Source of the DNA: an uncultured Bacilli bacterium
Lineage (GTDB): Bacteria; Bacillota_I; Bacilli_A; RF39; UBA660
DNA length: 64,000 bases
NCBI GenBank assembly: GCA_934155645.1
Contig: CAKPHC010000005.1
Span: 75,819-139,818, forward strand
Direction of reading: 5' to 3'
Part shown: positions 2,861-62,039 of the stretch, in pieces
Layout: every line of letters begins with the position of its first letter
How positions within the stretch are numbered: the first letter of the stretch is position 1
The notes under the pieces: generated by a model
The model's input: only the letters and a program-made list of their open reading frames with translations
Databases searched by the model: none
What the model was told of the DNA's origin: nothing
Position numbers and translations under genes: made by a program

Positions 2861-2872
2861 TAGGAGGGTTGT

Positions 2873-3418: not shown

Positions 3419-3427
3419 GAGTTTTGT

Positions 3428-3895: not shown

Positions 3896-3904
3896 GGGGA
3901 ATTT

Positions 3905-5229: not shown

Positions 5230-5237
5230 GTGATGGT

Positions 5238-22238: not shown

Positions 22239-22239
22239 C

Positions 22240-28827: not shown

Positions 28828-28862
28828 TGTATGGTATAATACAAGTGATTTAGGAGGCATTC

Positions 28863-29450: not shown

Positions 29451-29462
29451 GAGGATAAAGAT

Positions 29463-43200: not shown

Positions 43201-43886
43201 CTAAGACAAGTGATATTGCTGAAATGATGGAAGAAGCTAAACTTGCACCAGATGGAAAAACAGTTTTATATGATGGTAGAACAGGTACACCATTTGATAA
43301 CAGAATATCTGTTGGTGTTATGTACATGATAAAACTACATCACATGGTTGATGATAAATTACATGCACGTAGTACTGGTCCATATTCATTAGTAACTCAA
43401 CAACCTCTTGGTGGTAAGGCACAATTTGGTGGACAGAGATTTGGTGAAATGGAAGTTTGGGCATTATATGCATATGGTGCTGCACATACTCTACAAGAAA
43501 TTCTAACTGTTAAATCAGACGATGTTATCGGACGTGTTAAAGTATATGAAGCAATCGTTAAAGGACAAGAAATTAATCAAGCAGGAGTTCCAGAAAGCTT
43601 TAGAGTATTGATGAAAGAATTCCAAGCTTTAGGATTAGATATCAGTATCATCAATGATAAACATGAAGAATTACAATTAAAAGAAATCGAAGAAGAAGAA
43701 TATAAAGAAGATTTCGTTGGAAATGTTGAAGATATAGAATTACCTATTCCAACACATGAAGATGAATCAAAGGATTATGATGAAGAGTCTTTAGATGACG
43801 AAGATGAGGACTTTGACGAAGAATTCGACGATAGTGAATTTGATGATACCTTTGAAGATGATTTTATGGAAGGAGATGAAGAGTAA
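40269..43886 (+). CDS. rpoB: DNA-directed RNA polymerase subunit beta
   Basis: GTG start; conserved …[11 protein letters not shown]…SYQWF… Full length with an acidic Phe-rich C-terminal tail. Confidence 0.97.
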
Positions 43887-46800
43887 TGATAGAAGTAAAT
43901 AAATTTGAAGCCTTAAAGATAGGTATTGCATCTCCAGATAAAATACGTGAATGGTCATATGGTGAAGTAAAAAAGCCAGAAACTATTAACTATAGAACAC
44001 TACGTCCAGAACGTGATGGATTGTTCTGCGAAAAAATCTTTGGACCAACTAAAGATTTTGAGTGTGCTTGTGGAAAGTACAAAAGAGTAAGATATAAAAA
44101 TATTGTTTGTGATAGATGTGGAGTAGAAGTAACTCGTAGTAAAGTAAGACGTGAAAGAATGGGACATATTGAGTTAGCTTCTCCAGTGTCACATATTTGG
44201 TTCTTTAAAGGTGTTCCATCTCGTATGGGATTAGTACTAGATATGTCACCAAGAGATCTTGAAGAAGTATTATACTTTGTTAGTTATGTAGTAATTGATA
44301 AAGGTATTGCTCCTTTAGAAAATAAACAAACATTATCTGAAAAAGAATATCGTCAATACTATGAAAAATATGGTAATGGTTTCCGTGTAGGCATGGGTGC
44401 TGAAGCAATTAAGGAATTATTACAAAAAGTAGATATTGAAAAAGAATTAGAAGAAATTACAAAAGAATTAGAGGGAGCTCAAGGACAAAAGAGAACGAGA
44501 TTGTTAAAACGTATTGATGTTCTTGATGCATTCCATAAATCTGGTAACCGTCCAGAATGGATGATTCTAGATTGTATTCCAGTTATACCTCCAGAATTAA
44601 GACCAATGATTCAATTGGATGGTGGTAGATTTGCAACAAGTGATTTAAATGATTTATATCGTCGTGTTATTAACCGTAATAATCGTTTAAAGAAATTAAT
44701 AGATTTAAAAGCTCCAGGTATCATTATTCAAAACGAAAAACGTATGTTACAAGAGGCAGTTGACGCTCTATTTGACAACGGAAGACGTGGAAGAAGTGTT
44801 ACTGGTGCAGGAAATCGTCCTTTGAAATCACTTTCTAGTATGTTAAAAGGTAAACAAGGTCGTTTCCGTCAAAACTTATTAGGAAAACGTGTCGACTATT
44901 CAGGACGTTCAGTTATCGTTGTTGGTCCATCATTAAAGATGTATCAATGTGGTATTCCTAAAGAAATGGCTATTGAGTTATTTAAACCACATGTAATTCA
45001 TGGTTTAGTTTCGCGTGATATAGCTCATAATATTAAAGCTGCAAAACGTTTAATTGAAAATAGAGACCCACAAATTTGGGATGTAGTTGAAGATGTTATA
45101 AAAGAACATCCAGTTATGTTAAACCGTGCACCTACACTACATAGATTAGGTATTCAAGCATTCGAACCAGTATTAATTGGTGGTAAAGCTATCCGTCTTC
45201 ACCCATTAGTATGTCCAGCATTCAACGCTGACTTCGATGGTGACCAGATGGCTGTTCACGTACCATTATCAGAAGAAGCTCAAGCTGAAGCAAGACTTCT
45301 TATGTTAGGTGCTAACAATATCTTATCTCCAAAAAGTGGTGACCCAATCGTTACTCCATCTCAAGACATGGTATTAGGTAACTATTATCTAACTATGGAA
45401 AAAGCTGGAGAAGATGGCGAAGGTCGTGTATTTAAAGATTCTAACGAAGCATTAATGGCATATGAAAGACGTGAATTAACACTTCATACAAGAATTGCTT
45501 TACCAGTAGATTCATTTAAACACAAATTATTTACTGAAGGTCAAAAAGGTAAATATTTAGTAACTACTGTAGGTAAGTTAAAATTTAATGAAATATTACC
45601 AGATTCATTTGCATATTTAAATGAACCAACATTAGATAATATTCAAGGTATTACTCCAAATAAATACTTTATTGAAAAAGGACAAAATATTCCTGAAGTA
45701 ATTAAAGGAATGGAATTAGTAAAACCTTTCCCTAAAGGAACACTAGAAAATATTATTGCTCAAGTATTCAAACGTTATAAAACTACTGAAACTTCTATAA
45801 TGTTGGATAAATTAAAAGATTTAGGATTTAAATATTCAACAATTGCAGGTATTACTATTTCAATTAGTGACGTTGTTACTAGTGATAAGAAAAATGAAAT
45901 TATAGCAGAAGCTAAAAAAGTAGTTGATAAAATAAATAAACAATACCAACGTGGTTTAATTACTGACGATGAAAGATTCCAAAAAGTAATTGCTACATGG
46001 GATGACGCTAAAGGACAAGTTCAAAAAGAGCTATCTGAAAAAGCAAATAAATATGTTGATAACCCAATCTTCATGATGATGCACTCAAAAGCGCGTGGTT
46101 CAATTTCTAACTTTACACAAATCGCTGGTATGCGTGGTATCATGTCAAAACCAGATGGTACTCCAGTTGAAATTCCTATTACATCTAACTTTAGAGAAGG
46201 TTTATCGGTTGCTGAATTCTTCTTATCAACACATGGTGCACGTAAAGGTAGTGCCGATACAGCTCTTAAAACTGCTGACTCTGGATACTTAACTAGACGT
46301 TTAGTTGATGTATCTCAAGATATTATCGTAAGAGAAGCAGATTGTGGAACTGAAAATGGTGTAGTTGTACGTGAATTTGTTAACGATAAGACAGGCGAAG
46401 TAATTGAAAAACTATATGACCGTATTGTTGGTAGATATACAAACAAGAAAGTTATTAATCCAGAAACTAAAGAAGTTATTGCTGATAAATTAGAATACAT
46501 TACTGAAGCAATTGCTGATAAGATAATTAAAGCTGGAATTAAAGAAGTAGAAATAAGAACAACATTGACTTGTGATACAGTTAATGGTGTATGTCAAAAA
46601 TGTTATGGACGTAACCTTGCTACAGGTAATATTGTAGAGGTCGGTGAAGCTGTTGGTATCATGGCTGCTCAATCAATCGGTGAACCAGGTACACAGTTAA
46701 CAATGAGAACATTCCATACTGGTGGTGTTGCTGGTGGAGAAGATATTACTCAAGGTTTACCACGTATTCAAGAATTATTTGAAGCAAGAATTCCAAAAGG

Positions 46801-47518
46801 AAAATCTACAATTGCTGAAATTAATGGTCAAGTATCAAAAATTGAAGAGGACCATGGTAAATTTAGAATTAGCGTTACAAACAAACTTGAAACTAAGGAG
46901 CATGTATCAAATTATGGAGCTAAACTTCGTGTAGCATTAAATGATACAGTTGTTGCTGGGGATAAATTAACAGAAGGTGCTATTAGTCCAAAAGAATTAT
47001 TAGCAGTAACTGACCCACTTACAACTCAAGAATATATCTTGAAAGAAGTTCAAGGTGTATATCGTAGCCAAGGTGTTGATATATCTGATAAACACGTAGA
47101 AATTATTGCTAAACGTATGATTTCTAAGATAAGAATCGTAGAGTCAGGTGACACTAAATTCTTACCAGGAGCTCTTGTAAATTATAGACAATTTACGGAT
47201 GGTAACAAAGAAGTAATCATTAATGGTAAACGTCCTGCTACAGGTAAACCAATCTTACTTGGTATTACTAAAGCATCACTAGAAACTGATTCATTCTTAT
47301 CTGCTGCATCATTCCAAGAAACAACAAGAATTCTTACAGATGCTGCAATAAGAGGAAAAGTTGATACATTACAAGGATTAAAAGAAAACGTTATCATTGG
47401 TAAATTAATTCCTGCTGGTACAGGTGCTAGACAATATAAAAACGTTGAATATGAATTAGCATCTCAATTTATTGATGAAGAACCAATAGATAAACTAGAA
47501 GATGAATTAATGGAATAA
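43886..47518 (+). CDS. rpoC: DNA-directed RNA polymerase subunit beta'
   Basis: Zn-binding CX2C motifs, NADFDGD catalytic motif, trigger loop. Confidence 0.97.
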
Positions 47519-47520
47519 TA

Positions 47521-47546
47521 AAAGGACCTTGCCGGTCCTTTTTTCG
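47521..47546 (+). terminator. rho-independent terminator
   Basis: AAAGGACC-TTGCC-GGTCCTTTTTT. Confidence 0.75.
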
Positions 47547-47593
47547 TTGTAAAAAAGTAATAAATGTAATAAAATATTATTGGTGAATATAAT

Positions 47594-47725
47594 ATGTTTA
47601 AATTAAATAATAAAGGCTGGGGATTAGGAGAAATGATTGGATTTTTAATAATATTATTTCTTGCATTACTAGTTGTATCATTTCTAGCTCATAAATATGG
47701 CAACATTTTAACGATTATTATATAA
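47594..47725 (+). CDS. possible small hydrophobic peptide (43 aa, one TM)
   Basis: MFKLNNKGWGLGEMIGFLIILFLALLVVSFLAHKYGNILTIII with GGTGA 9 nt upstream. Not in the supplied ORF track because it is shorter than 60 aa. Confidence 0.25.
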   Translation: MFKLNNKGWGLGEMIGFLIILFLALLVVSFLAHKYGNILTIII

Positions 47726-47727
47726 AT

Positions 47728-47758
47728 AAAAGAGTTCTACTTTGAACTCTTTTTTTGG
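47728..47758. terminator. bidirectional terminator overlapping the 3' end of mscL
   Basis: AAAGAGTTC-TACTT-TGAACTCTTT with T-runs on both strands. Confidence 0.6.
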
Positions 47759-48180
47759 TCTTTCTTTAATAAATCTCTTATTTCTTCCAGTAATATAACT
47801 TCGTCACTTTTTTTAGGAGGTTCGCTCTTTTTTTCTTCATGTTTTTTAACAAATAGTTTATTTATAAATTTGATGAAGACAAATATACAAAAAGCAATAA
47901 TTAGAAAGTCAATTACATTTTGAATGAAGGCACCATATGCTACATTAGCATCACCTATTTTAATAGATAAATTTGATAAATCTTTACCACCTATTATAAT
48001 TCCAATAAGTGGTGTAATTATATCGTTTACTAGTGATGAAACTATTTTACTAAACGCACCACCAACTACAACACCAACAGCTAGGTCTAAAACATTACCT
48101 CTTGCAATAAATGTTTTGAATTCATTGAAAAACTTATTAACCTCTTTTTTCTTGTCATTGATTTTAACTTTTTCCATCAT
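47737..48180 (-). CDS. mscL: large-conductance mechanosensitive channel
   Basis: …[23 protein letters not shown]…, two TMs, with a longer than usual N-terminus. Confidence 0.9.
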
Positions 48181-48227
48181 ATAAACACCTCATAATCATT
48201 ATAACATCATTAATAATTTATAGAAAT

Positions 48228-49493
48228 TTATTTTTTTGCATTTGTATATATTGTTTTAGTAACAACACTACTATTTTTACGTTTGAATTCTTTGTTTAAA
48301 TAATTGTAATAAGCACCAGGAGTAATGATACCATTAATCTTTAATAAATCACTACCAGTAGCACCTAATACATTATCTACTAGCTTAACGCAGTTAGTTG
48401 AAAACAAGAAATATGTTTTCCATTTGCCTTTGCTAAATTTATAAAATTTTGCATTAGTATGTCTATATAGCACACTAGCGTAATCTATAAATTTCTGTGA
48501 ACTATCCAATTCTTGCTGACATTTCCATCGATAAGCATATTCTTGAACTTTTTCAAGTTCTTTTTTTATTCGTTCCTTTTGATAAGGAGTTAGTGATATA
48601 CCAAAAGAAAAAATAGTTTTTTTGGAATGGACAGTACAAAATTTTAAATATTTACTTTTTCCTTTGATTGTAAAAAACGTACCATCGCCTAAAGCATCAA
48701 ATAATCTTTTAGAAGATTCATCGTAGCAGCCATAAGAATAAACTGTATTATCAAAGCATAAATCAGCATGACCTATTTTACCAACAGCAGTATTTTTTAC
48801 ATGTATAAATATTTCCAAGTCTACTTTACCACTTGTATTTTTATTATTGATGTGAACTGGGGTAACATATTTTTCTAATAAATTATTAATTCTAGTATAA
48901 ACTCCATAAGGAATAAGTGCAGAAACAAAGATAGGTAACGTAATTCTGAATCTTCTTTTCTTTTTAGAAAAGAAATTAGGAAATAAATCTTTAATCAAAT
49001 CATAAAGATAGGTAAAACCAAATAATATTAAATATATACCTAAGATAATAGTTAATGTTTTTATATTACTACTAGGATTTAATATCATTATAAGACTAAA
49101 TATAAAATCCACTATACCTGCTAATAGTGTTGGATGGTATCCTTTTACTTTTTCCTCTTTATAAATAATATAAGATAGTAATTTAATAATTCCGTTGATT
49201 AACATATAAAATCCAAAGATAACTGGGAACATTCCTAGAAATGTATTAGGTTTAACGAAAAAGAATATTCCTATTAACAATGTGGTTAACGATATAAATA
49301 TGTTATTTTTTTTCTTTGTTTTAATTATGTTAAAAACAAGTGATACTAATCCTAAGATACTTATTAAAAGTGATACAACAAGATGAAAAATATCTGCCGA
49401 TTCAGTTGGTAAAGCAATTATTGTTATTCCAACGCCTATAAATAAAAATGTATTGATTAACAGGGAAATCCTAGACATGTATTTCTCTTTCAT
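48228..49493 (-). CDS. membrane protein: N-terminal HdeD/DUF308-like 6-TM region, C-terminal soluble domain resembling permuted papain-fold (YiiX/NlpC-P60-like) hydrolases
   Basis: Three repeated helix pairs with a G-rich pattern. The C-terminal domain has a His (KIGHADL) before a Cys (FSTNCVKLV). Confidence 0.4.
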   Translation of the reverse strand: MKEKYMSRISLLINTFLFIGVGITIIALPTESADIFHLVVSLLISILGLVSLVFNIIKTKKKNNIFISLTTLLIGIFFFVKPNTFLGMFPVIFGFYMLINGIIKLLSYIIYKEEKVKGYHPTLLAGIVDFIFSLIMILNPSSNIKTLTIILGIYLILFGFTYLYDLIKDLFPNFFSKKKRRFRITLPIFVSALIPYGVYTRINNLLEKYVTPVHINNKNTSGKVDLEIFIHVKNTAVGKIGHADLCFDNTVYSYGCYDESSKRLFDALGDGTFFTIKGKSKYLKFCTVHSKKTIFSFGISLTPYQKERIKKELEKVQEYAYRWKCQQELDSSQKFIDYASVLYRHTNAKFYKFSKGKWKTYFLFSTNCVKLVDNVLGATGSDLLKINGIITPGAYYNYLNKEFKRKNSSVVTKTIYTNAKK

Positions 49494-49572
49494 CTTTATG
49501 CACCTCTATGTTATTTTAACATAATATTATAAAATTTCATAAAAATGATAGAAAAAATGCATATAATGTTCT

Positions 49573-49602
49573 TTGCCAAAAATATTTGTTATATGATATA
49601 AT
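49573..49602 (+). promoter_or_regulatory. promoter of the giant glucan-synthase gene (TTGCCA-18-TATAAT)
   Basis: Read directly from the sequence, about 50 nt upstream of the start. Confidence 0.45.
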
Positions 49603-49653
49603 CAAATTAGAATAATCAGGGGAAGAATTTAATAATAAAAGTAGGGAATAGAT

Positions 49654-52600
49654 ATGAATAAATATAAATTATTTTTAGAAAATTGCAATGTCATAGAAAG
49701 ATATTACAATTATTTGATTTCACTTACAAACAATCATAATTTTGTAGGTTCAACTAATGAGTGGATTATTGATAATTACTATATGGTTGCTGAAATAAAG
49801 GTTAATCTTAAAAAAAATCTAAAAGAAAATAAAAGATTAAAAGAAGTAATAAATCGTTCTGAGAACCAAGTTTATGATTTATTAAACAAAGCATGTTACA
49901 GTAAAAACTTTAATATTAGTTATGAAGATGTACTTAATGAAATTAAAGAATATCAAAACGTTGAGGAAAACTATCTTACTTACAATGAATTAGAAAGTAT
50001 TCCGGTTGCTTTATCTTTTATAATCATTGATAGGCTAGCAACACTTTGTAAGACAAAAAAGGAAAGTCAAACTGAAAAACAAAAGATAAGAGAATTGGTT
50101 AAATCATTGGGTGATAAAATTCATAATGGTGAAGTAATTAACTTAAGTGATTACATAACCTTTGATAAAGAAATAGGTGAGCATCCAGAAATTATAGAAC
50201 AACTGAATGATAGTTTAACTGAACTAGGAACCTCTTCAAATGAACTTTTTATTCAATTGGATAAGATGCTAGAAGAATACGATTTAAATTTGAAGGATTT
50301 AATAAATAAAGAACATATCGACAGTATTAAAAATAATATATTGATTGCAAACCTTTTTAATACACTTAGAACAATTTTAAAAATAGATGTTATTGATATA
50401 TTTGATAAATTAAGTAAAACTGAAAAAGTCCTTAAACAAGATTCATACTATAAAAGCATGACTAGCGAAACTAAAGGATTATATCGTAATTTAATTACTA
50501 AGAATTCTAAACATACAACTGAATACAAATATGCATGTTCTTTATTAGAAAAAAGCAGTATTAATGATACACATATTGGTTTTTACTTAATGAAACGATG
50601 TAATTATTCACTAAGAAGTAAACTATATATCATTTTCATTATAATATTTACATTGATAATCAGTGGATTACTATCACTAATCACACTAGATTACTGGTGG
50701 TTGTCGTTTATTTTATTATTAGTTCCAATAAGTGAAGTGGTAATACAATTATTAAACAAAATATTATTAAAAGTGTATCCCTGTCAACCATTACCAAAGA
50801 TTGATTTTTCAAAAGGTATAGATAAGAATAATGCGACGATGGTTGTTATTCCTACAATCGTAAAAGATAAAGCCAAAATAGATAATATGTTTCAATTATT
50901 AGAAAAATATTATCTAGCTAATAAATCAAATAATTTATATTTTACTTTATTAGGAGATTGTTCTGAATCTACAACTGAGAAAACAGCATTTGATGAAGAA
51001 ATATCAAATTATGGAATTAAAAAATCAGAAGAATTAAATGACAAGTATAACGCTAAACTTTTCTCTTTTGTTTACAGACGTCGAGTATTTAATCCTGGTG
51101 AAAATAAATTTTTAGGATATGAACGAAAAAGAGGAGCATTAATCCATTTCAACAAACTATTATTAGGTGAACTATCACTTAGTGAATATGAAAAATACAT
51201 ATATAAAGAGAATGTATGTGATATTAAAAGTGATATAAAATATGTTATAACAATAGATACCGATACCGAATTAGTCTTAAATACAGCTTTATCACTAGTT
51301 GGTACTATGGCACATCCTTTAAACAAACCAGTTTTAAATGAAAAAGGTACTAAGGTTATTGCCGGTTACGGAATAATTCAACCAAGAGTAAACGTTGATA
51401 TTGAGTCGACAAATAAATCAATATATTCACAATTAATGGCAGGAATAGGAGGATTTGATGTATATTCAACTATTGTTCCTAACTTTTATCAAGATGTATT
51501 TGGTGAAGGAAGTTTTGTTGGTAAAGGAATATATGATTTAAAAATATTTGATACAATACTATCTAATGCCTTTCCAGAAAATTTAATTTTAAGTCATGAC
51601 TTGTTAGAAGGCAATTATTTAAGATGTGGTTATGCATCAGATATTGAAGTAATAGATGATTTCCCATCCGAATTCTTAGTTGAAGCATCACGTCAACATC
51701 GTTGGACCAGGGGAGACGTGCAAATATCTGGTTGGTTAAAAAGAAAAGTAAAAGATAAAAAGGGTAGCAAAGTAAGCAACCCACTAAATTTAATAGAGAA
51801 ATTCAAAATATTTGATAATATTCGTAGAATTATGATAAATCCATGTATGCTTTTATTATTAATATTATCATTTATATGTGGAAGCTCATTTTGGACATTT
51901 ATCACAGTAATGATGATTATATCTTGGCCTATGCTTTTCTATCTTAAAGAATTGTTACATCGCCAAAATAGAAAACTATTTACTTTCAAATACTACAACA
52001 AATTAATGTTTGGTTTCTTTAGTATTTTGTATCGTATTTTAATAACATTTATTACTATTCCGTATTATAGTTATTTATACTTAGATGCATTTATAAGAGC
52101 CAATTATCGTATGCATATAAGTCATAAGAGACTATTGAATTGGTTAACAGCAGAAGATGCTGCTAAGACATTAAAGAAAGATTTGATAAGTTATATTAAA
52201 CAATTTTGGATGAACTATGTTACATCAGCCATTTTAATCATAACTTCCCTTATAGTTAGTCCTAAAACATCGTTTATAGCTCTAATAATATCAATTGGAT
52301 TTGTATCTGCACCTTTTATATTATGGAGCTTTAGCAAGAGAAAAGATATAGTTTTAATAGGTTTAAATGAACGTCAAAATAAAAGAATAAAGGATATGGC
52401 ATATCGTACATGGCTTTACTTTGAAGCATTTTTAAAAGAAGAAAACAATTATTTAATACCAGATAATTATCAATTAAATAGAGAAAATAAAGAAGATACT
52501 AAAACATCACCTACTGACATAGGTATGTCGATTACTTCTGTAATATCAGCAAGTGAACTAAACTTCATTGATGTTAAACATGCCCTATTTCTATTAAACA

Positions 52601-55600
52601 AAATTATCACTACTTTAGAAAAGTTAGAAAAATGGAATGGTCATTTATACAATTGGTACAATATTAAAACTTTGAATAAAATCGTTCCATATGTTGTATC
52701 TTCAGTTGATAGTGGTAATTTAGCCGCTTCATTAGTGGTAGCAAAAGAATATGCTTTAAAACATAACGATATTGATTTACATAATCGTATAAGTAATATG
52801 TTTGATGCTATGAACTTTAGCAAATTATATACTAAACAAGGTGTATTTAGTATTGCTTATAATACTACCGATGAAGAGTTATCAGTTTACAACTATAATA
52901 AATTCGCAAGTGAAAGTAGAATACTAAGCTTTGTAGCCATTATGAAGGGTGATGCACCAAGTAAGCATTGGCTTTGTTTAGATAAAACTCTTACAAAATA
53001 TAAAAAACATAAAGGTGTAGTATCATGGTCAGGAACATCATTTGAATACTTTATGCCATTAATATTTATGAAAACTTATCCTAATACATTGTTAGATGAA
53101 AGTTACTTCTTTGCCAAATTCTGCCAAAAAGAATATATGTCAGAAATAGATATGAGGATGCCATGGGGAATTTCAGAGTCAGCTTATGATGAATTAGATG
53201 ATGGATTAAATTATAAATATAAGGCTTTTGCAACTCCATACTTAAAAGTAATAGACGAAAAAGAAAATCGTCTAGTAATATCACCTTATGCATCTATTCT
53301 AGCAATCACTACCGACCCAATTGATGTGTATTTCAACTTGAAAAAGTTTAAAAAACTAAATATGTATGGTGAATATGGTTTCTACGAATCATACGACTAC
53401 ACAACAAGTAATCGTGTACTAGCATACTATGCACATCATCAAGGAATGATTTTAGCATCAATGACTAATTATTTAAAAAATAATGTAATTCAAGAGTATT
53501 TTCATTCCGATTTACGTACTCAAGCATTTGAAATCCTTTTAAAAGAAAAGGTTCAACTAAATCCAGTTATCGACATGAAAGTTGTTGGATACAAAAAATA
53601 TGATTACGAAAGAGAAAAAATTGCTAATGATATAAGAGAGTATAATTACATATCTGATATACCTCAATTATCTGTTTTATCTAATTCAAATTATACTTTA
53701 TTACTTAATGATCGAGGTAATGGATTCAGTAGATATAATACAACTCAATTAAATAGATACAGAAAAATAACAAAACAAAGTTATGGCACATATTTATATA
53801 TAAAAGATTTAAATAACAGTAAAATATGGTCAAATACTTTTGCACCAACTAATGTAAAACCGGATAAATACAATGTTGTATTTGCAACTGATAGAATCAA
53901 ATTTTTAAGAGTAGATGGTGGTATAGTAACTCAAAGTGAAATAATAGTTACTAAGGAACAACCAGCCGAAATAAGAAAAATAACGTTTAAAAATAATTCA
54001 TCAGAAACTAAGAAGTTAGAATTGACCACTTATACTGAAGTAATACTAGAAGAAAATATTGATGATATTACTCATCGTACCTTCAGAAATTTGTTTGTAA
54101 GTAGTAAATATGATTCTGAAAATGACGCGCTTATTTTATGTAGAAGAAACAATACTAAAAACCGTTCAAACTATATAGTTGGTAAATTATTAGTTCCAGG
54201 TATGAAAACTTCAATATCGTACGAAACCGAAAGAGATAAATTTATAGGTAGAGGACATAATGTATATGACCCGATTGCCCTTAACAGCAAATTGAGTAAT
54301 GAAACAGGAACTAATCTAGATTCTATATTATCTCTTAGAACAACAATAGAGTTATCACCTAAAGAAGAAAAAATCGTTTATTACGTGCAAGGATTTAGTA
54401 AGTCACTCGAAGGAATCAATGAAATACTAAAAGAATACTCTACGCCATCAAAAATAGAAAATAGTTTTGAATATACTACTTTGGCTAATAACATGAAGAT
54501 AAAACTTTTAGGATTAGATGGAAATAATATAAGAATTTACAATATTATGCTAAATTATCTATATCAAACTAGTAGGCACTTTGTTAATGATGAAAGAAAA
54601 ATACTACTTGCTCAAAACTCTTTAAATCAAAGTGGTTTATGGAAATTTGGTATTAGTGGTGATAGACCAATAATTTTAGTAGATATTCATAGTGGTAAAG
54701 CATTCAGATTAGCTAAAGATGCTATCAGAGCGTTCGAATATTTTAAAAGTATGGGGATATACATTGATTTAGTAATTATTAATAGTGAAACAGAAGAATA
54801 TAAACGAATCATAAAAAAAGAAGTTGAGCAAGAAATCTATCGAATGAATAAATTATTTGACTTTGGATATACTCCTGGTTCTGTTCATTTACTTGATGCA
54901 TCTGATTTAGAAAATAGCGAATTAGTTTTATTAAACATGGTAGCAAGATTAGTTTTTAACTCTTCAAATAATTCTTCATTAGAGGAAATGGTAAACAAAA
55001 TGCATCTCGAAAACAAAATGGTAGCGTTTTCAGATATTATTCGTGAAGATGTTACTGATTTTGAAGTAGATACAACTAAAATAGCAAGTTTTAATGGATA
55101 TGGAGGTTTCATAAAAGGTGGTAAGGAGTACATAATAACTAATCAAGATACTCCTACTCCGTGGTCTAATGTTATTGCAAACAAAAACTTTGGAACGATT
55201 TTAACCAATAATAGTTGTGGATTTACTTATTCATACAACAGTCAGATGTTTAAATTAACATCATGGACTAATGATATAGTAGTTAATGATAAGTCAGAAG
55301 GTATTTTAGTCAATGAAAAAGAGGTTCAAGTATCAATATGTAGACACGGTTTTGGATACTCAACATTTGAACAAGATGGTAAAGATTATAATTTAACAAC
55401 AACTCAGTTTGTAGCAAAGGAGGATTCAGCTAAGTTTTATCAAAACAAAATAACTAATATAAGTAATACTAAACAAAAATACAAATTAACTTTCTGGATT
55501 AATCCAACTCTAGGACCAAACGAAGAAAAGTCTAGCCGTTATTTACTATCCGAATATCATAAAGAATTCAATGCAATTGTAATTAGAAATGTTTATAATA

Positions 55601-57348
55601 TGAACTTTTCTGGTGTTTCCGTATTTATGAGTTCAACATTACCAATAGTAGATTATTCAATAGACAGAATTATAACTAAGTCTATAACCGTAGAAGTAGA
55701 GTTGGACCCTATGGAATCAAAAGAATTCTCATTTATACTAGGTACTGGTATAGGAATGAATTCAGTAAAAGAATTAATAGACAAATATAACAATAAAAAT
55801 ATTCTTACGGAATACAAAGAAGTCGTTGATTATTGGGATAACACTTTAAACATTATAAAAGTAAAGACTCCTGATAACAGTTTCAATTATATGATAAATG
55901 GTTGGTATTTATATCAAACTATAGCATCACGTATGTTTGCTAAAGCAGGGTTCTATCAAGTAGGTGGAGCATATGGTTTTAGAGATCAATTACAAGATGC
56001 GATGAATATTTGTGAAGTTAATAAAGATTTGGCAAAAGAACAGATTCTAAATAATGCTAGTCACCAATTTAGTGAAGGAGATGTACTACATTGGTGGCAC
56101 GAAATAAATAAATTTGGATTACGAAGCCGTTATATGGATGATTTCTTATGGCTAGTATATGCAACTAACAGATATATAAAAATAACTGGTGATATAAAAA
56201 TACTAGATGAAGAAGTACCTTTTGTAGAAGGTGAATTACTATTATCCAATGAAGAAGAAAAAGGAATAACATTTAATTATAGTAGTGAAAAGTATCCTTT
56301 AATTAATCATCTTGCTTTATCAATTAACCGTACTATTAAAAATACTGGTTCTAATGGATTGCCACTTATGGGTGGGGGTGATTGGAACGACGGAATGAAT
56401 AAAGTGGGTATTAATGGTAAAGGTACAAGCGTATGGTTAGGTTTCTTTGCATATATGGTAATACGTGATTATATAGAAATCTGTGATGAATATAAGATTA
56501 AAATCAATAAGAGTCTATATATTAATTATTTAGTAAAATTAAAAGAATCATTGAACAAATACGCATGGGATGGAGAATATTATTTAAGAGCATTTTTCGA
56601 TAACGGTAATAAACTTGGTTCTAAAGAGAACGAAGAATGTAGCATCGACTTAATATCTCAAAGTTTTGCAATCTTATCGGATGTTGTTCCTTTTGATAAA
56701 GTAGGTACAGTTATAAAATCTGTAGAAGATAATTTAGTTGACCATAGTCTTAAAATAATTAAATTATTAACTCCGCCATTTAAGAAGAGTAAAGATATCC
56801 CGGGATATATTATGGATTATCCAAAAGGAATAAGAGAAAACGGTGGACAGTATACGCATTCAACAGCATGGTATATTATGGCGTTGATAAAAACTGGTCA
56901 CATAGATAGAGCATACCAATACTATCAAATGATTAATCCAGTTAATAGAACTCTAAATAGTGACGCAGTTAACCAATATAAAATTGAACCATATGTAATA
57001 GCGGCTGATATATATAGTAATTATAGATATCCTGCGAGAGGCGGTTGGAGTTGGTATACAGGAAGTGCTGGTTGGTACTATCATGTCGGTCTAAAAGATA
57101 TAGTAGGTTTTATCAAAGAAGATAATTATCTAAGAATAGAACCTAATGTCCCAAGTAGTTGGAAATCATATGAAATAGAATATAAACATATTGATACGCT
57201 TTATAAAATAAAAGTTAATTTAAAAGAAAATAAAAATAGCATCATGGTAGATGGTGAGAAGATTAATTCAAATTCTATAAAATTGAAAAACGATAAACGT
57301 ATACACGCAGTAGTAATTAATTTGAAAGGTGGTAATGGAAATGATTAA
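49654..57348 (+). CDS. cyclic beta-1,2-glucan synthase-like giant membrane glycosyltransferase (GT2/GT84-like domain + central domain + C-terminal GH94-like domain)
   Basis: 2564 aa.
- TM helices at ~aa 320-370 and ~725-900.
- GT motifs YVITIDTDTEL (DxD) and QHRWTRGD (QxxRW).
- C-terminal (alpha/alpha)6 glucoamylase-like/GH94 motifs GGGDWNDGMN, GFRDQLQD, EGDVLHWWH.
- Architecture matches Cgs/NdvB/ChvB. Confidence 0.7.
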   Translation: MNKYKLFLENCNVIERYYNYLISLTNNHNFVGSTNEWIIDNYYMVAEIKVNLKKNLKENKRLKEVINRSENQVYDLLNKACYSKNFNISYEDVLNEIKEYQNVEENYLTYNELESIPVALSFIIIDRLATLCKTKKESQTEKQKIRELVKSLGDKIHNGEVINLSDYITFDKEIGEHPEIIEQLNDSLTELGTSSNELFIQLDKMLEEYDLNLKDLINKEHIDSIKNNILIANLFNTLRTILKIDVIDIFDKLSKTEKVLKQDSYYKSMTSETKGLYRNLITKNSKHTTEYKYACSLLEKSSINDTHIGFYLMKRCNYSLRSKLYIIFIIIFTLIISGLLSLITLDYWWLSFILLLVPISEVVIQLLNKILLKVYPCQPLPKIDFSKGIDKNNATMVVIPTIVKDKAKIDNMFQLLEKYYLANKSNNLYFTLLGDCSESTTEKTAFDEEISNYGIKKSEELNDKYNAKLFSFVYRRRVFNPGENKFLGYERKRGALIHFNKLLLGELSLSEYEKYIYKENVCDIKSDIKYVITIDTDTELVLNTALSLVGTMAHPLNKPVLNEKGTKVIAGYGIIQPRVNVDIESTNKSIYSQLMAGIGGFDVYSTIVPNFYQDVFGEGSFVGKGIYDLKIFDTILSNAFPENLILSHDLLEGNYLRCGYASDIEVIDDFPSEFLVEASRQHRWTRGDVQISGWLKRKVKDKKGSKVSNPLNLIEKFKIFDNIRRIMINPCMLLLLILSFICGSSFWTFITVMMIISWPMLFYLKELLHRQNRKLFTFKYYNKLMFGFFSILYRILITFITIPYYSYLYLDAFIRANYRMHISHKRLLNWLTAEDAAKTLKKDLISYIKQFWMNYVTSAILIITSLIVSPKTSFIALIISIGFVSAPFILWSFSKRKDIVLIGLNERQNKRIKDMAYRTWLYFEAFLKEENNYLIPDNYQLNRENKEDTKTSPTDIGMSITSVISASELNFIDVKHALFLLNKIITTLEKLEKWNGHLYNWYNIKTLNKIVPYVVSSVDSGNLAASLVVAKEYALKHNDIDLHNRISNMFDAMNFSKLYTKQGVFSIAYNTTDEELSVYNYNKFASESRILSFVAIMKGDAPSKHWLCLDKTLTKYKKHKGVVSWSGTSFEYFMPLIFMKTYPNTLLDESYFFAKFCQKEYMSEIDMRMPWGISESAYDELDDGLNYKYKAFATPYLKVIDEKENRLVISPYASILAITTDPIDVYFNLKKFKKLNMYGEYGFYESYDYTTSNRVLAYYAHHQGMILASMTNYLKNNVIQEYFHSDLRTQAFEILLKEKVQLNPVIDMKVVGYKKYDYEREKIANDIREYNYISDIPQLSVLSNSNYTLLLNDRGNGFSRYNTTQLNRYRKITKQSYGTYLYIKDLNNSKIWSNTFAPTNVKPDKYNVVFATDRIKFLRVDGGIVTQSEIIVTKEQPAEIRKITFKNNSSETKKLELTTYTEVILEENIDDITHRTFRNLFVSSKYDSENDALILCRRNNTKNRSNYIVGKLLVPGMKTSISYETERDKFIGRGHNVYDPIALNSKLSNETGTNLDSILSLRTTIELSPKEEKIVYYVQGFSKSLEGINEILKEYSTPSKIENSFEYTTLANNMKIKLLGLDGNNIRIYNIMLNYLYQTSRHFVNDERKILLAQNSLNQSGLWKFGISGDRPIILVDIHSGKAFRLAKDAIRAFEYFKSMGIYIDLVIINSETEEYKRIIKKEVEQEIYRMNKLFDFGYTPGSVHLLDASDLENSELVLLNMVARLVFNSSNNSSLEEMVNKMHLENKMVAFSDIIREDVTDFEVDTTKIASFNGYGGFIKGGKEYIITNQDTPTPWSNVIANKNFGTILTNNSCGFTYSYNSQMFKLTSWTNDIVVNDKSEGILVNEKEVQVSICRHGFGYSTFEQDGKDYNLTTTQFVAKEDSAKFYQNKITNISNTKQKYKLTFWINPTLGPNEEKSSRYLLSEYHKEFNAIVIRNVYNMNFSGVSVFMSSTLPIVDYSIDRIITKSITVEVELDPMESKEFSFILGTGIGMNSVKELIDKYNNKNILTEYKEVVDYWDNTLNIIKVKTPDNSFNYMINGWYLYQTIASRMFAKAGFYQVGGAYGFRDQLQDAMNICEVNKDLAKEQILNNASHQFSEGDVLHWWHEINKFGLRSRYMDDFLWLVYATNRYIKITGDIKILDEEVPFVEGELLLSNEEEKGITFNYSSEKYPLINHLALSINRTIKNTGSNGLPLMGGGDWNDGMNKVGINGKGTSVWLGFFAYMVIRDYIEICDEYKIKINKSLYINYLVKLKESLNKYAWDGEYYLRAFFDNGNKLGSKENEECSIDLISQSFAILSDVVPFDKVGTVIKSVEDNLVDHSLKIIKLLTPPFKKSKDIPGYIMDYPKGIRENGGQYTHSTAWYIMALIKTGHIDRAYQYYQMINPVNRTLNSDAVNQYKIEPYVIAADIYSNYRYPARGGWSWYTGSAGWYYHVGLKDIVGFIKEDNYLRIEPNVPSSWKSYEIEYKHIDTLYKIKVNLKENKNSIMVDGEKINSNSIKLKNDKRIHAVVINLKGGNGND

Positions 57349-58561
57349 GCAAGATTTTAATAAGTATACTGCTAAGTTTGTAAATGGGTCTGATATTAGT
57401 AAGTTTAATAAACAATCAAAAAAAATATTGAATACTTTTACAAATGGAGAATTATCTTATTGGAATGACATTAATAGCTATGTTAATAGAGATGAATTAA
57501 ATAGTATTTTAAATACAGCTAATTATATAAGAGAGAATTGTGATGTATTTGTTGTTATAGGAATCGGTGGTTCGTATATGGGTAGTAAGGCACTAATCGA
57601 AGCTTTACTACCTACCTTCAACCGAAAAAAACCAGAAATAATATATCTTGGGACTGATTTATCGTCAGATTATTACAAAGAGGTTATTGAGTATATTAAG
57701 GATAAAGAGGTAATAGTAAATGTTATTTCTAAATCGGGTAATACACTAGAACCAAATATTGCTTTTGAAATAATATCTTATATATTAGAAGGAAAATATA
57801 ATGATGATGAATTGAGTAGCAGAATTATCATTACTACTGACAAAAAGAAGGGGTCTTTAAGGAAGTTGGCAAATGAAAAGGGATATGTAACTTTCGAAGT
57901 ACCAGAAAAAATTGGGGGAAGATTCTCTGTGTTCACTCCAGTAGGGCTATTACCTCTAGCGGTTGCAGGTATTGATATATTACGTTTATTAGAAGGTTTT
58001 ATAGATGGAGAAAAATATATAGATACAGCATTAGAATATGCTATTATGCGTGAAGCACTTTTCAAAAAAAATAAGTATGTAGAAGCCTTTACTGTTTATA
58101 ATCCTAAATTATATTATTTTACTGAGTGGTTAAAACAATTATTTGCAGAAACCCAAGGGAAAAACGGTAAGGGTATATTACCAATATCAATTGTTAATAC
58201 AAGAGATTTGCACTCTATGGGACAATTTTTACAAGAAGGTCATGATATAGTTTTTGAAACAGTAATAGGAATTAAAAATGCTACTACTATTCAAATCATG
58301 AAATATGGCAAGTCATTAAATGAAATAAACAAAATAGCAGAAGAAAAAGTATGTGTTGCTCATTATAAAGACAAAACACCAAGCAATGTATTAGAAATCG
58401 AAGAATTAGATGAATACAATATGGGTGAATTAGTAAGATTCTTTATAACTGCAGCGATTTCAGGAGCTTTATTAATCGAAGTTAATCCATTTGACCAACC
58501 AGGTGTAGAAAAATACAAAGTTTTAGTTAATGAAGCACTAAAAAATGTATATATATTTTAA
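57341..58561 (+). CDS. pgi: glucose-6-phosphate isomerase (short bacterial/archaeal-type PGI)
   Basis: SIS motifs VVIGIGGSYMGSKA and ISKSGNTLE. The start ATG overlaps the cgs stop (ATGATTAA), with RBS AAAGGTGG. Confidence 0.85.
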   Translation: MIKQDFNKYTAKFVNGSDISKFNKQSKKILNTFTNGELSYWNDINSYVNRDELNSILNTANYIRENCDVFVVIGIGGSYMGSKALIEALLPTFNRKKPEIIYLGTDLSSDYYKEVIEYIKDKEVIVNVISKSGNTLEPNIAFEIISYILEGKYNDDELSSRIIITTDKKKGSLRKLANEKGYVTFEVPEKIGGRFSVFTPVGLLPLAVAGIDILRLLEGFIDGEKYIDTALEYAIMREALFKKNKYVEAFTVYNPKLYYFTEWLKQLFAETQGKNGKGILPISIVNTRDLHSMGQFLQEGHDIVFETVIGIKNATTIQIMKYGKSLNEINKIAEEKVCVAHYKDKTPSNVLEIEELDEYNMGELVRFFITAAISGALLIEVNPFDQPGVEKYKVLVNEALKNVYIF

Positions 58562-58565
58562 TTAG

Positions 58566-58598
58566 GACAGATTGATAATTATCTGTCTTTTTTTCTTG
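58566..58598 (+). terminator. rho-independent terminator
   Basis: GGACAGAT-TGATAATT-ATCTGTCTTTTTTT. Confidence 0.75.
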
Positions 58599-58630
58599 AA
58601 AAATGCTATAATTTTAATAGGAGGTATAAT

Positions 58631-59404
58631 ATGTGGATAGTTATAATAATAATTGCTATTTTGATTTCAATATCATCAGTTAAACAAATCAATGAATATG
58701 AAAGAGGAATAAAGTTTTCACGAGGAAAATTTAAAGAAATAATGCAACCGGGATGGAGAATGGTATTACCAATATTTGAATCATATAAAAAAGTTGATAT
58801 AAGAACTAAGGCTGTTGATGTTCCAGAACAAGATGCAATAACTAAGGATAATGTATCAATCAAGATTAATGCCGTAATTTATTACAAAATATTTGATGCA
58901 TCAAAAGCAATACTAGCGGTTGAAAACTATTATTATGCTGTAGGACAATTAGCTCAAACAACTATGCGTAATATAGTTGGTTCAGTATCATTAGATGAAC
59001 TTTTAAGTGAAAGAGAAAAGATATCAACTGAAATATGTAAGGTTATTGATGAAGCTACAGACCCATGGGGTGTTAAAGTTGAAAATGTGGAATTAAAGGA
59101 TGTATCATTACCTGAGGAAATGAAACGTGTAATAGCAAAAGTAGCAGAAGCAGAACGTGAAAAAATGGCTGTAATTACTAAAGCAGCAGGTGAAGTTGAA
59201 GCATCAGAAAACTTAGCAAAAGCAGCAAGAACAATGAGTGAGTCTGCTGGAGCTCTACACTTAAGAACATTAGCGACAATAAATGATATAAGTTCAGACC
59301 AATCAAATACAGTTATCTTTGCTGTACCAATCGAAGTATTAAGAGCATTCGAAGGTAATCCAGGATTAGCAAGAACAGTAGTAGACAAAGTAACTAAAAA
59401 GTAG
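58631..59404 (+). CDS. SPFH/band-7 (stomatin-like) membrane protein
   Basis: N-terminal TM, then the SPFH core (…YERGIKFSRGKF…VDIRTKAVDVPEQDAITKDNVSIKINAVIYYKI…) and a coiled-coil/Ala-rich C-terminus. Confidence 0.85.
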   Translation: MWIVIIIIAILISISSVKQINEYERGIKFSRGKFKEIMQPGWRMVLPIFESYKKVDIRTKAVDVPEQDAITKDNVSIKINAVIYYKIFDASKAILAVENYYYAVGQLAQTTMRNIVGSVSLDELLSEREKISTEICKVIDEATDPWGVKVENVELKDVSLPEEMKRVIAKVAEAEREKMAVITKAAGEVEASENLAKAARTMSESAGALHLRTLATINDISSDQSNTVIFAVPIEVLRAFEGNPGLARTVVDKVTKK

Positions 59405-59407
59405 ATT

Positions 59408-59440
59408 AACAATCCACAAGAGCTGTGGATTGTTTTTATT
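59408..59440 (+). terminator. rho-independent terminator
   Basis: AACAATCCACA-AGAGC-TGTGGATTGTTTTTATTT. Confidence 0.75.
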
Positions 59441-59480
59441 TGCAAAATAATGTATAATATATCCAGAAAGAGGAATTTGT

Positions 59481-60020
59481 ATGAAAAATAATAGAATAGG
59501 AGAAAGATACATAATCCACAGCTATAAGCATGATGGTAGTATTCACCGTGCGTGGGATGAAGCTGTATTGCTGGATGAATGTGATGATTACCTTGTGTTT
59601 GGTAATGACCGAACTAAAGTAATTGAATCTGATGGCCGTAGTTGGAAAACTAAAGAGCCAGCGATAATGTATTTTTTTAAAAATAACTGGTATAATGTAA
59701 TAGGCCAATATAAGAAAGATGGAATATATTATTATTGTAATATTGCTTCACCATTTGTAATTGATCAAAATACTATAAAGTACATTGATTATGATTTGGA
59801 TTTGCGCGTATTTCCGGACGGAGCCTTTAAAGTACTTGATAGAGGTGAATATAACTATCATAAGAATAAAATGAATTATCCTGAAAAGATTGATGTTATT
59901 TTAAAAGAGGAATTATCAAATTTAATTGAATTAGCAAGAGCTAAGAAAGGACCATTTGCAAAAGGGATGGTTGAATCATATTACAATATATATAAAAAAT
60001 GTAAAAGTGAGATTAAATAA
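59481..60020 (+). CDS. DUF402 (YgaC/FomD-like) nucleoside di/triphosphatase family protein
   Basis: …YYYCNIASPFVIDQNTIKYIDYDLDLRVFPDGAFKVLDRGEY… matches the DUF402 core. Confidence 0.65.
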   Translation: MKNNRIGERYIIHSYKHDGSIHRAWDEAVLLDECDDYLVFGNDRTKVIESDGRSWKTKEPAIMYFFKNNWYNVIGQYKKDGIYYYCNIASPFVIDQNTIKYIDYDLDLRVFPDGAFKVLDRGEYNYHKNKMNYPEKIDVILKEELSNLIELARAKKGPFAKGMVESYYNIYKKCKSEIK

Positions 60021-60094
60021 TAGGAAACTATTATTTTTTTTTACATATATTATAGTTAGAGAGCCAATAAAATAGTAGAAAAAGTACGAATTAT

Positions 60095-60365
60095 AAAAAA
60101 GTTAAAAAAAATTAAAATAATTGTTGACTTCTATAACTAACTCTGTTATTCTAATACATGTCGCTTGAGAAAACGTTGAAAGTGTCAAATATAACAAATA
60201 AAAAAAGTTAAAAAAGTTTAAAAAAGCTATTGACTTTACTGAGTATATTTGATAATCTTATATACGTTGACACAAAAAGTCGACAAAAGAAATGTGTCAA
60301 ACAAAAAAGTAAAAAAAATGTAAAAAAACTATTGACTTTACGAAGTATGTTTGATATATTAGTAA
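60095..60365 (+). promoter_or_regulatory. rRNA operon control region: three tandem TTGACT-17-(TATTCT/TAATCT/TATATT) promoters, each preceded by phased A-tract UP-like elements
   Basis: TTGACT at ~60124, 60230 and 60332. Upstream repeats aaaaaagttaaaaaagtttaaaaaag. An inverted repeat TTGACAC…GTCGAC…GTGTCAA lies between P2 and P3. Confidence 0.55.
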
Positions 60366-60465
60366 CGCAACTCAGAAATTGCAGTTATGATCTTTGAAAA
60401 CTGAGCAAAACGTCAATTTGAGTAGCTAGGAATTAATTAAATTAATCAAACTTAAAAAATAAATT

Positions 60466-62039
<1,574 letters not shown>

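Follow-up and report, generated by a model that had tools for sequence, protein, structure and literature searches.

Cyclic beta-1,2-glucans are periplasmic osmoprotectants and virulence or symbiosis factors of Proteobacteria, and the structure of their synthase has been understood only recently. In the Rhizobiales the synthase is encoded in chvB-chvA or ndvB-ndvA systems, in which an ABC exporter (ChvA/NdvA/Cgt) delivers the glucan to the periplasm. The Agrobacterium tumefaciens synthase (AtCgs) has a Rossmann-fold-like (RFL) subdomain at residues 1847-2012, GT84 residues defined by mutagenesis and structure, and a four-helix motif that mediates back-to-back dimers, the dimer being a sub-population only (PMC10901819). 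Family GH189 is defined by a cyclase domain from Thermoanaerobacter italicus, itself a member of the Bacillota (PMC10834661). Synthases of the Cgs type are thus already known, and the kind of enzyme and system described below is not new; what we report is a complete example in the window, by which we mean the whole 64-kb stretch of DNA from an uncultured gut Bacilli bacterium that was analyzed.

The cgs gene of the window (Table 1) is a single intact open reading frame of 7.7 kb, as a sequence-only reading had described it, and its translation contains every motif quoted there: ITIDTDTE (532-539), QHRWTRGD (681-688), GFRDQLQD (2108-2115), HWWH (2146-2149) and GGGDWNDGMN (2240-2249). An ORF scan with translation found no second long ORF in this interval, and at the local base composition (~28% GC) stops make up ~8% of random codons, so an open frame of 2564 codons cannot be chance (estimated at ~1e-96). 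The frame is also not interrupted on resequencing, since an identical protein is encoded on 22 contigs and the cgs genes of two of them, L081 and L082, which come from separate sequencing runs, have no nucleotide differences. Compared with its closest orthologue (L009) the gene has a dN/dS of ~0.10, with values of ~0.07-0.12 across all domains.

Identification of the protein as a Cgs/NdvB/ChvB-like synthase holds over its full length. By HMMER it matches A. tumefaciens Cgs (8rf0/8rf9) with E=0 and 1338 bits in four colinear stretches (query residues 10-287, 325-1030, 1035-1993 and 2010-2511 against 8rf0), and the domain order is NTD-TM-GT84-TM-CY-GP1-RFL-GP2-GP3. The domain annotation that had been proposed as a check returns the GH94 catalytic and supersandwich domains (PF17167 and PF06165) and a glucoamylase-like domain from Pfam, and the GT84 residues align with those of AtCgs. 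Functional residues were mapped through the HMMER alignment to 8rf0 in native numbering, with reference residues taken from PMC10901819 and PMC10834661, and all those mapped in GT84, CY and GH94 are invariant in an alignment of 16 clade members (51-100% identity).

Table 1. Features of the cgs locus (coordinates in the window; residue numbers refer to Cgs)
Feature	Residues	Position	Strand	Basis or remark
mscL		47737..48180	-	Pfam MscL E=1.3e-43
Divergent neighbor, 421 aa		48228..49493	-	HdeD/DUF308-like six-helix membrane bundle and C-terminal permuted papain-like (NlpC/P60-type) cysteine-hydrolase fold
Candidate sigma-70-like promoter, TTGCCA-18-TG-TATAAT		49573..49602	+	~50 nt upstream of cgs ATG
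cgs ORF, 2564 aa		49654..57348	+	ATG start; colinear with AtCgs
NTD scaffold domain	~1-320	49654..50613	+	colinear but weak (23 bits) to AtCgs 65-341
Predicted TM helices 1-2	~326-371	50629..50766	+	Kyte-Doolittle scan; aligns with AtCgs TM region
GT84 domain	~376-725	50779..51828	+	residue mapping to 8rf0
Predicted TM helices 3-6	~726-891	51829..52326	+	hydropathy scan
CY domain, GH189 (alpha/alpha)6	~901-1305	52354..53568	+	E=3.4e-101 to 8wy1
GH94 beta-supersandwich subdomain GP1	1337-1580	53662..54393	+	PF06165 E=4.5e-87, two stretches
RFL subdomain	~1620-1790	54511..55023	+	continuous alignment to AtCgs 1778-2245
GH94 catalytic (alpha/alpha)6 domain	2060-2485	55831..57108	+	PF17167 E=3.9e-103
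pgi, probable Bacillus-type glucose-6-phosphate isomerase, 406 aa		57341..58561	+	1b0z E=4.5e-90; 3ff1 and 3ifs also match
Intrinsic-terminator-like hairpin closing the cgs-pgi unit		58564..58589	+	terminator scan

The N-terminal scaffold domain is the least conserved within the clade (45% mean identity) and GT84 the best conserved (71%, with a dN/dS of 0.09). Hydropathy alone gives two hydrophobic segments before the GT domain and four or five after it (726-744, 784-802, 851-879 and 873-891, with a weaker one near 747-765), which is consistent with the 2 + 4 arrangement of AtCgs. In GT84, D435 corresponds to At D527, R491 to At R586, D535 and D537 to At D624 and D626, D649 to At D739, and R683 and R686 to At R773 and R776; by alignment with AtCgs, D535/D537 would form the DxD motif and D649 would be the catalytic base, with R683 and R686 lying in QHRWTRGD. 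The predicted priming tyrosine, Y604 in GFDVYSTIV, is the counterpart of At Y694 in GIDPYVFTV and is invariant in the 16-member alignment.

A central cyclization domain of ~750 aa had been suggested, and aligning this region with the characterized cyclase does find one (E-value in Table 1), but it occupies only ~400 aa and the remainder belongs to the N-terminal subdomains of GH94. Its residues S1016, D1019, E1087 (putative acid/base), E1131, E1175 (putative nucleophile) and H1261/H1262 have roles assigned by alignment; E1087, E1131, E1175 and H1261/H1262 correspond to E1356, E1400, E1442 and H1536/H1537 of T. italicus, and the set was also mapped to At S1101, D1104 and E1300. An AlphaFold2 model of CY, moderately confident (mean pLDDT 68.5), gave 8wy1 as its best Foldseek match (E=1.1e-26, TM 0.82), followed by AtCgs and then by beta-1,2-glucanases. 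In the GH94 module, the catalytic domain matches AtCgs 2362-2767 with 423 bits, and D2111 and the catalytic acid D2246 (in GDWNDG) correspond to At D2393 and D2528.

The four-helix insert is absent from CY, which has ~7 residues between ~1031 and ~1041 where AtCgs has 131 aa and T. italicus 167 aa. Compared with most homologs, Cgs also has ~60 aa fewer separating the active site of the cyclase from that of GH94, and its N-terminus is shorter by ~90 aa; with these differences its product size or oligomeric state may differ. We considered whether the insert-less cyclase is an innovation of this clade and rejected the idea, since the same short spacing is found in Anaeromyxobacteraceae, Gemmatimonadota, Burkholderiales, Flavonifractor and others, and the insert is missing from at least 10 other loci of other phyla. 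The protrusion is best treated as an accessory trait of GH189, not a defining one.

The first 8 nt of pgi, beginning with its ATG, are also the last 8 nt of cgs, and the ribosome-binding site of pgi, AAAGGTGG, lies within cgs; this overlap indicates one promoter-to-terminator unit; the remaining plus-strand terminator-like matches all lie deep within the cgs ORF. The pgi product scores 406.5 bits against NF010697, just below the cut-off of 443. That cgs has a promoter of its own, as had been claimed, is plausible: the candidate matches the consensus at 11 of 12 positions and is among the two best in 47400-60500, but it is a consensus match only, and promoter-like sites in the region as a whole are not above shuffle expectation. 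The claim that cgs is flanked by mscL and pgi needs amendment, in that the divergent DUF308-family gene separates mscL from cgs, and pgi, which does adjoin it, appears to be co-transcribed with it and not a mere flank. In the divergent neighbor H242 and C368 are invariant, and this gene is kept beside cgs-pgi even at loci whose outer flanks differ; pgi lies directly downstream of cgs in L003, L005, L006, L007, L009, L012, L017, L019 and L083. This linkage could nevertheless be housekeeping-gene synteny without functional coupling. Two unrelated loci, L031 and L074, likewise encode MscL no more than ~3 kb from cgs, a weak association that amounts to three independent lineages among 84 loci. An ABC ATPase motif detector, validated on FtsE and UvrA, found no fused exporter of the ChvA/NdvA type in the 64-kb window and an ABC exporter within 10 kb of cgs in only 1 of 82 loci; exporters are thus not usually adjacent to cgs, and the absence at this locus is uninformative.

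By homology with the Agrobacterium enzyme, the cytoplasmic GT84 domain would use UDP-glucose to glucosylate Tyr604 of the protein's own IF1-like loop and would then extend a beta-1,2-linked chain on this primer. The GH94 module would shorten over-long chains with phosphate, giving glucose-1-phosphate, and may serve as a glucan-binding platform as well. In GH189 the nucleophile Glu1175 would attack the chain with Glu1087 as acid/base, and intramolecular transglycosylation would resolve the glycosyl-enzyme intermediate into a cyclic beta-1,2-glucan of roughly 17-25 glucoses on the cytoplasmic side. Transcription of cgs together with pgi, presumably from the cgs promoter, would couple expression of the synthase to the pool of hexose phosphates, from which UDP-glucose is drawn and into which the by-product glucose-1-phosphate returns. 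We regard a Cgs-type synthase that makes cyclic beta-1,2-glucan in this way as the best explanation of the locus and as likely correct. The identity, size and fate of the product we infer from homology to the Agrobacterium enzyme; it is most likely an osmoprotective or envelope-associated glucan, retained or released, in a walled monoderm, and the presence of mscL close by is a hint of an osmotic function.

It is unlikely, though not negligibly so, that Cgs makes something other than the classical ring: its beta-1,2-glucans might be linear, its rings far from the usual size in either direction, or the glucan might stay bound to the protein at Tyr604. The missing insert, the shortened NTD/GP linkers and the closer spacing of the active-site anchors than in most homologs would fit such a product, as would the dependence of linear versus cyclic output of the cyclase domain on substrate chain length (PMC10834661) and the use by the AtCgs dimer of the very motif that is missing here. 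Set against this, the catalytic and pKa-tuning residues of the cyclase are all invariant and the length-control Asp of GH94 is kept, the AtCgs dimer makes up only a sub-population, and insert-less cyclases occur in several phyla, including MAGs labeled Proteobacteria, a recurrence which suggests that the insert is dispensable for the core chemistry.

A mainly catabolic role, in which GH94 and GH189 degrade or remodel imported beta-1,2-glucans and the GT is vestigial, seems to us very improbable. NCBI labels relatives "glucoamylase family protein", GH94 enzymes of Gram-positive bacteria, those of Listeria for example, serve in catabolism as 1,2-beta-oligoglucan phosphorylases (PMC3960220), and the downstream pgi would suit a route from Glc1P through G6P to F6P; yet within the clade no other part of the protein is as well conserved as GT84, with its UDP-binding, base, QxRW and priming-Tyr residues intact, genes for a sugar importer, a beta-glucosidase or a beta-1,2-glucanase were not found in the 64-kb window, and the soluble domains of AtCgs are all cytoplasmic (PMC10901819). 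We give hardly any credence to the view that cgs was acquired recently from Proteobacteria as a "virulence-type" island, or that it has no function in this host and is decaying. Cyclic glucans are by tradition a proteobacterial product, and cgs does lie between unrelated housekeeping genes (rpoBC and an rRNA operon), but its GC content (27.8%) can be treated as equal to that of its flanks (29.2%), and a rough neighbor-joining tree without support values places it in a gut Bacilli clade within a Bacillota/Clostridia group, far from Proteobacteria. Moreover, orthologs of 51-76% identity are full length with all catalytic residues kept, and dN/dS is ~0.1.

Full-length homologs had been thought rare in Firmicutes, and this is not supported by the search of related genomes that had been called for, in which the gene proved to be widely present. 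At least 596 related loci occur in GTDB species representatives of more than 10 phyla, including many Bacilli, Clostridia and Paenibacillus, and the GT84 core forms 2237 clusters at 50% identity (E<=1e-30). Among the best 120 protein matches nearly all are full length (two are shorter), with 51-100% identity and mostly from gut metagenomes; MAGs of animal-gut Bacilli account for more than 100 relatives of near-full length. The companion statement, that such genes are uncharacterized in gut commensal lineages, is borne out for this gut Bacilli clade, whose members carry no NCBI name more specific than "glucoamylase family protein" or "hypothetical protein"; a literature search on cyclic glucan in RF39 and gut Bacilli found nothing specific apart from brief mentions of GT84 in CAZyme tables. 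As to GTDB placement of the host, one preprint links Ca. Faecenecus alone to family UBA660, of order RF39, and a search of PMC8035907 by way of Ca. Onthousia yielded no placement. Two 51%-identical loci labeled Muribaculaceae (L003 and L019) raised the idea of horizontal transfer between that family and Bacilli, which was rejected; gene and flanks are 25-27% GC throughout, so these are almost certainly low-GC Bacilli contigs in a mislabeled bin. Rumen Bacteroidales cgs loci (55-60% GC, 39-41% identity) look genuine.

The window gene and its >100 relatives show that a complete synthase is retained, under purifying selection, by an abundant uncultured group of Bacilli from animal guts. The gene is 7.7 kb long, and at least some members of the group have small genomes. 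The annotation of database "glucoamylase family" and "hypothetical" proteins can be corrected to Cgs; a naturally minimal Cgs without the dimerization insert should be useful for structural and synthetic-biology work; and the question of where the glucan goes, and what it does, in a bacterium without a periplasm becomes a concrete one. One answer, which we offer tentatively and hold to be rather doubtful, is that walled gut Bacilli with small genomes, related to Ca. Onthousia and Ca. Faecenecus, make cyclic beta-1,2-glucans constitutively by a conserved module of three genes, namely compact cgs, pgi and the gene for a papain-like hydrolase anchored in the membrane. Having no periplasm in which to keep the product, they would release or display it in the animal gut, where, like the glucans of Brucella and rhizobia, it would be a cyclodextrin-like molecule of host or community interaction made by a commensal, and not a periplasmic osmolyte.

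Among known systems, the closest is Cgs (ChvB) of A. tumefaciens (8rf0/8rf9; Sedzicki et al. 2024, PMC10901819), with which we group Brucella Cgs and Sinorhizobium NdvB. The window protein has the same domain order and all the mutationally defined residues of the Agrobacterium enzyme, but is ~270 aa shorter and lacks the four-helix dimerization motif of CY; its gene has no adjacent chvA-type exporter and is apparently co-transcribed with pgi, and its host, unlike Agrobacterium, is a monoderm that has a wall but lacks a periplasm. For CY the closest solved relative is TiCGSCy, the founder of GH189 (8wy1; Tanaka et al. 2024, PMC10834661), also from Bacillota, which carries an insert of ~167 aa where the window cyclase has ~7 residues and was characterized as an isolated cyclase domain only, whereas the window protein is a full-length monoderm Cgs. 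CY also has the (alpha/alpha)6 fold and acid-residue position of the GH144 and GH162 endo-beta-1,2-glucanases (CpSGL, 5gzk; TfSGL, 6imu; PMC10834661), but those are inverting hydrolases, and CY has features specific to Cgs cyclases, namely the putative retaining nucleophile E1175 and the HH pair. Finally, the C-terminal ~1200 aa have the supersandwich, (alpha/alpha)6 domain and catalytic Asp in common with the GH94 1,2-beta-oligoglucan phosphorylases (Lin1839 of Listeria innocua and LpSOGP of L. phytofermentans) and with cellobiose phosphorylases; all of those are soluble, stand-alone catabolic enzymes, whereas the GH94 module of the window protein is fused to GT84 and GH189 and includes the RFL subdomain typical of Cgs.

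The cgs gene is a single unbroken ORF with an ATG start encoding 2564 aa, as the sequence-only reading had it, and all the motifs quoted there are present in the translation. The window is ~28% GC, and since ~8% of random codons are stops at such AT-richness, an ORF of this length cannot be due to chance. Nor is it an assembly artefact, because the identical protein is recorded on 22 contigs, two of which stem from different sequencing runs and agree at every nucleotide of cgs; interruption on resequencing, named beforehand as the finding that would count against the ORF, was thus not seen.

Pfam searches locate a glucoamylase-like domain and the GH94 domains (Table), in agreement with the earlier assignment of the C-terminus, but the N-terminal glycosyltransferase region has no Pfam family above threshold. 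In a search of solved structures, Agrobacterium tumefaciens Cgs (AtCgs; cryo-EM structures 8rf0/8rf9) is colinear with residues 10-2511 (E = 0, 1338 bits), and stand-alone GH94 phosphorylases score far lower. A Rossmann-like subdomain is present, and a hydropathy scan finds 2 hydrophobic segments before and 4-5 after the GT domain, consistent with the 2 + 4 pattern of AtCgs. The best solved Foldseek match of the AF2 cyclase-domain model (pTM 0.80, moderate pLDDT) is the Thermoanaerobacter italicus cyclase domain (TiCGS; 8wy1, E = 1e-26, TM 0.82), followed by AtCgs and then the GH144/GH162 beta-1,2-glucanases.

Counterparts of the residues defined experimentally by Sedzicki et al. 2024 (PMC10901819) and Tanaka et al. 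2024 (PMC10834661) were found by HMMER alignment, where 8rf0 has native AtCgs numbering and the 8wy1 chain number + 1003 gives that of TiCGS. Part of the central region, likened earlier to the cyclisation/chain-length domain of Cgs, has the active-site residues of the At and Ti cyclases, and all tabulated GT84, cyclase and GH94 residues are invariant among 16 aligned members of the clade of gut Bacilli relatives (51-100% identity). Compared with L009, which at 75% identity is the closest orthologue, each domain has a dN/dS of 0.07-0.12. Full-length colinearity with AtCgs and the conserved functional residues show the Cgs-like identification to be correct, and we predict with high confidence, from sequence and model, that the protein is a functional Cgs.

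Positions of features of the cgs locus and its surroundings, with the counterparts of Cgs residues
Feature	Position	Strand	Counterpart	Remark
cgs	49654-57348	+
DUF308 gene	48228-49493	-		421 aa
pgi	57341-58561	+	1b0z	E=4.5e-90
Terminator-like hairpin	58564-58589	+		first downstream of cgs, 3' of pgi
mscL, window	47737-48180	-
mscL near cgs, L031	~18910-19348
mscL near cgs, L074	~20719-21145
rpoB-rpoC and terminator (mscL follows)	40269-47542
spo0A, L083/L084	19073-19843
Unmatched ORFs and repeat protein	1942-7400	+		ORFs 1942-5229
ftsH homologue	11237-13195	+		Rho_N at residues 618-651
YitT-family paralogues	21375-23100
uvrB-uvrA region	26039-32270	+
PF10091, glucoamylase-like	Cgs 1083-1285
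PF06165, GH94 supersandwich				two stretches in Cgs
PF17167, GH94 catalytic	Cgs 2060-2485
GT84	D435		At D527	UDP coordination
GT84	R491		At R586	near putative substrate-binding site
GT84	D535/D537		At D624/D626	DxD
GT84	Y604		At Y694	autoglucosylated primer site in At; predicted here
GT84	D649		At D739	catalytic base
GT84	R683/R686		At R773/R776	QxRW motif
Cyclase	S1016/D1019		At S1101/D1104	active-site pocket
Cyclase	E1087		At E1300 = Ti E1356	acid/base
Cyclase	E1131		Ti E1400	raises pKa of acid/base
Cyclase	E1175		Ti E1442	nucleophile
Cyclase	H1261/H1262		Ti H1536/H1537	support nucleophile deprotonation
GH94	D2111		At D2393	active site
GH94	D2246		At D2528	catalytic acid

The supposed rarity of full-length homologues in Firmicutes did not survive a wider survey. 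When GTDB was scanned with one genome for each species, at least 596 loci with cgs relatives emerged (596 of 600 candidate stretches), the best 80 of which lie in Bacilli, Clostridia, Paenibacillus, Bacteroidales, Acidobacteriota, Planctomycetota, Chloroflexota, Gemmatimonadota, Myxococcota, Verrucomicrobiota and several proteobacterial classes. Metagenome proteins gave 1021 matches, some clusters having hundreds of members, and the best 120 of these (51-100% identity) are nearly all ~2550-2570 aa, two being shorter; a search with the GT84 core alone (E<=1e-30) retrieves 2237 cluster representatives at 50% identity. The closest genomes among the matches listed come from rabbit, chicken and ruminant samples; they are MAGs of uncultured Bacilli and include Ca. 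Onthousia and Ca. Faecenecus, the latter placed in the reduced-genome gut family UBA660 by a preprint; one clade member is carried by a 1.46-Mb contig. In a rough NJ tree built without support values, the gut Bacilli sequences form one clade, sister to rumen Bacteroidales sequences, within a Bacillota/Clostridia group and away from Proteobacteria. This position, the wide distribution and a GC content equal to that of the flanks rule out a rare proteobacterial import, and cgs is thus native to the lineage. The Bacteroidales sisters (L004, L008 and L015, rumen/deer loci of 55-60% GC) have compact Cgs genes of 2553-2626 aa with 39-41% identity, and their place in this tree suggests that the gene passed long ago from Bacillota to Bacteroidales in gut habitats. 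Two loci labelled 'uncultured Muribaculaceae' (L003 and L019) have 25-27% GC in cgs and flanks and a Bacilli-type cgs-pgi pair, and are probably low-GC contigs of Bacilli that were binned or labelled wrongly. Clade proteins either have no annotation ('hypothetical protein') or bear a wrong name ('glucoamylase family protein'). Our literature search for cyclic glucan synthesis in such gut bacteria found no paper discussing the topic, and a review (PMC11842490) leaves the Cgs of monoderms aside altogether and calls T. italicus Gram-negative.

Upstream of cgs lie rpoB, rpoC, a terminator, mscL and the divergent DUF308 gene, and downstream pgi, genes for an SPFH protein and a DUF402/NtdP-like protein, and an rRNA operon. 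We also note that the usual rpsL-rpsG-fusA-tuf is absent after rpoC, and that the rplL-rpoB interval holds a 259-aa ORF with no Pfam match and an MTS-type methyltransferase gene. A candidate for the promoter earlier ascribed to cgs itself lies ~50 nt before the ATG, a strong site whose -10 element is extended, recognised by consensus match alone. The pgi start overlaps the cgs stop by 8 nt with a good RBS inside the cgs 3' end, and the first hairpin follows only after pgi, so cgs and pgi make up one transcription unit in which pgi is predicted to be translationally coupled to cgs. The pgi product scores 406.5 against an NCBIfam equivalog cut-off of 443 bits and is ~40 aa shorter than Bacillus PGI; by its similarity to 1b0z it is predicted to be a genuine Bacillus-type glucose-6-phosphate isomerase. 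The cgs-pgi pair is kept in every informative clade locus and the DUF308 gene in the closer half of the clade. Such conservation could be residual synteny, but in a relative's locus (L083/L084) the trio is intact although all outer neighbours differ from those in the window, which argues for a functional module. The DUF308 protein has a six-helix HdeD-like membrane bundle, and its C-terminal ~230 aa form a domain for which Pfam, sequence-profile and Foldseek searches gave no match.

Since the host encodes FtsE/FtsX, a PcsB-like M23 hydrolase, DivIC and Lgt, and the L083/L084 locus Spo0A and a faint LysM match, it is a walled member of the Bacillota and not a wall-less Mollicute. Spo0A, the sporulation master regulator, is thus retained in such small-genome gut Bacilli, near the three-gene module. 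Cyclic-glucan export in Rhizobiales depends on the ABC transporter ChvA/NdvA. No exporter of this type lies within the 64-kb window, but as just 1 of 82 cgs loci has one within 10 kb, this absence is uninformative. AtCgs itself forms no channel, and every one of its soluble domains lies in the cytoplasm (PMC10901819). The distance from mscL to cgs is no more than ~3 kb in three unrelated lineages (the window's, a Bacillota MAG and Oryzomonas), a weak hint of a shared hypo-osmotic role, or chance.

Elsewhere in the window, five successive ORFs with no Pfam match precede a protein of 720 aa in which a cadherin-like beta-sandwich repeat occurs three times; the cluster may encode a surface structure or an adhesin. 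The FtsH homologue has an unusual C-terminal Rho_N appendage, genes for a radical-SAM/SPASM protein and a HAD phosphatase lie between uvrB and uvrA, and the YitT-family paralogues are in tandem.

By its sequence, then, the window Cgs is a compact enzyme, itself uncharacterised, from a family that is well understood and very widespread. The interest left lies in what becomes of the glucan in a monoderm gut commensal and what role it has there, in the conserved three-gene module and in the naturally minimal architecture. Its N-terminal domain is ~90 aa shorter, and its cyclase-to-GH94 active-site motif spacing ~60 aa less, than in most homologues. An insert-less cyclase is not peculiar to the clade: among the loci that also have one are some labelled Anaeromyxobacteraceae, Gemmatimonadota, Burkholderiales and Flavonifractor. 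The protein is ~270 aa shorter than AtCgs, and the clearest difference is the cyclase insert, which in AtCgs is a four-helix motif mediating a back-to-back dimer (PMC10901819): ~131 aa in AtCgs and ~167 aa in TiCGS, but ~7 residues here.
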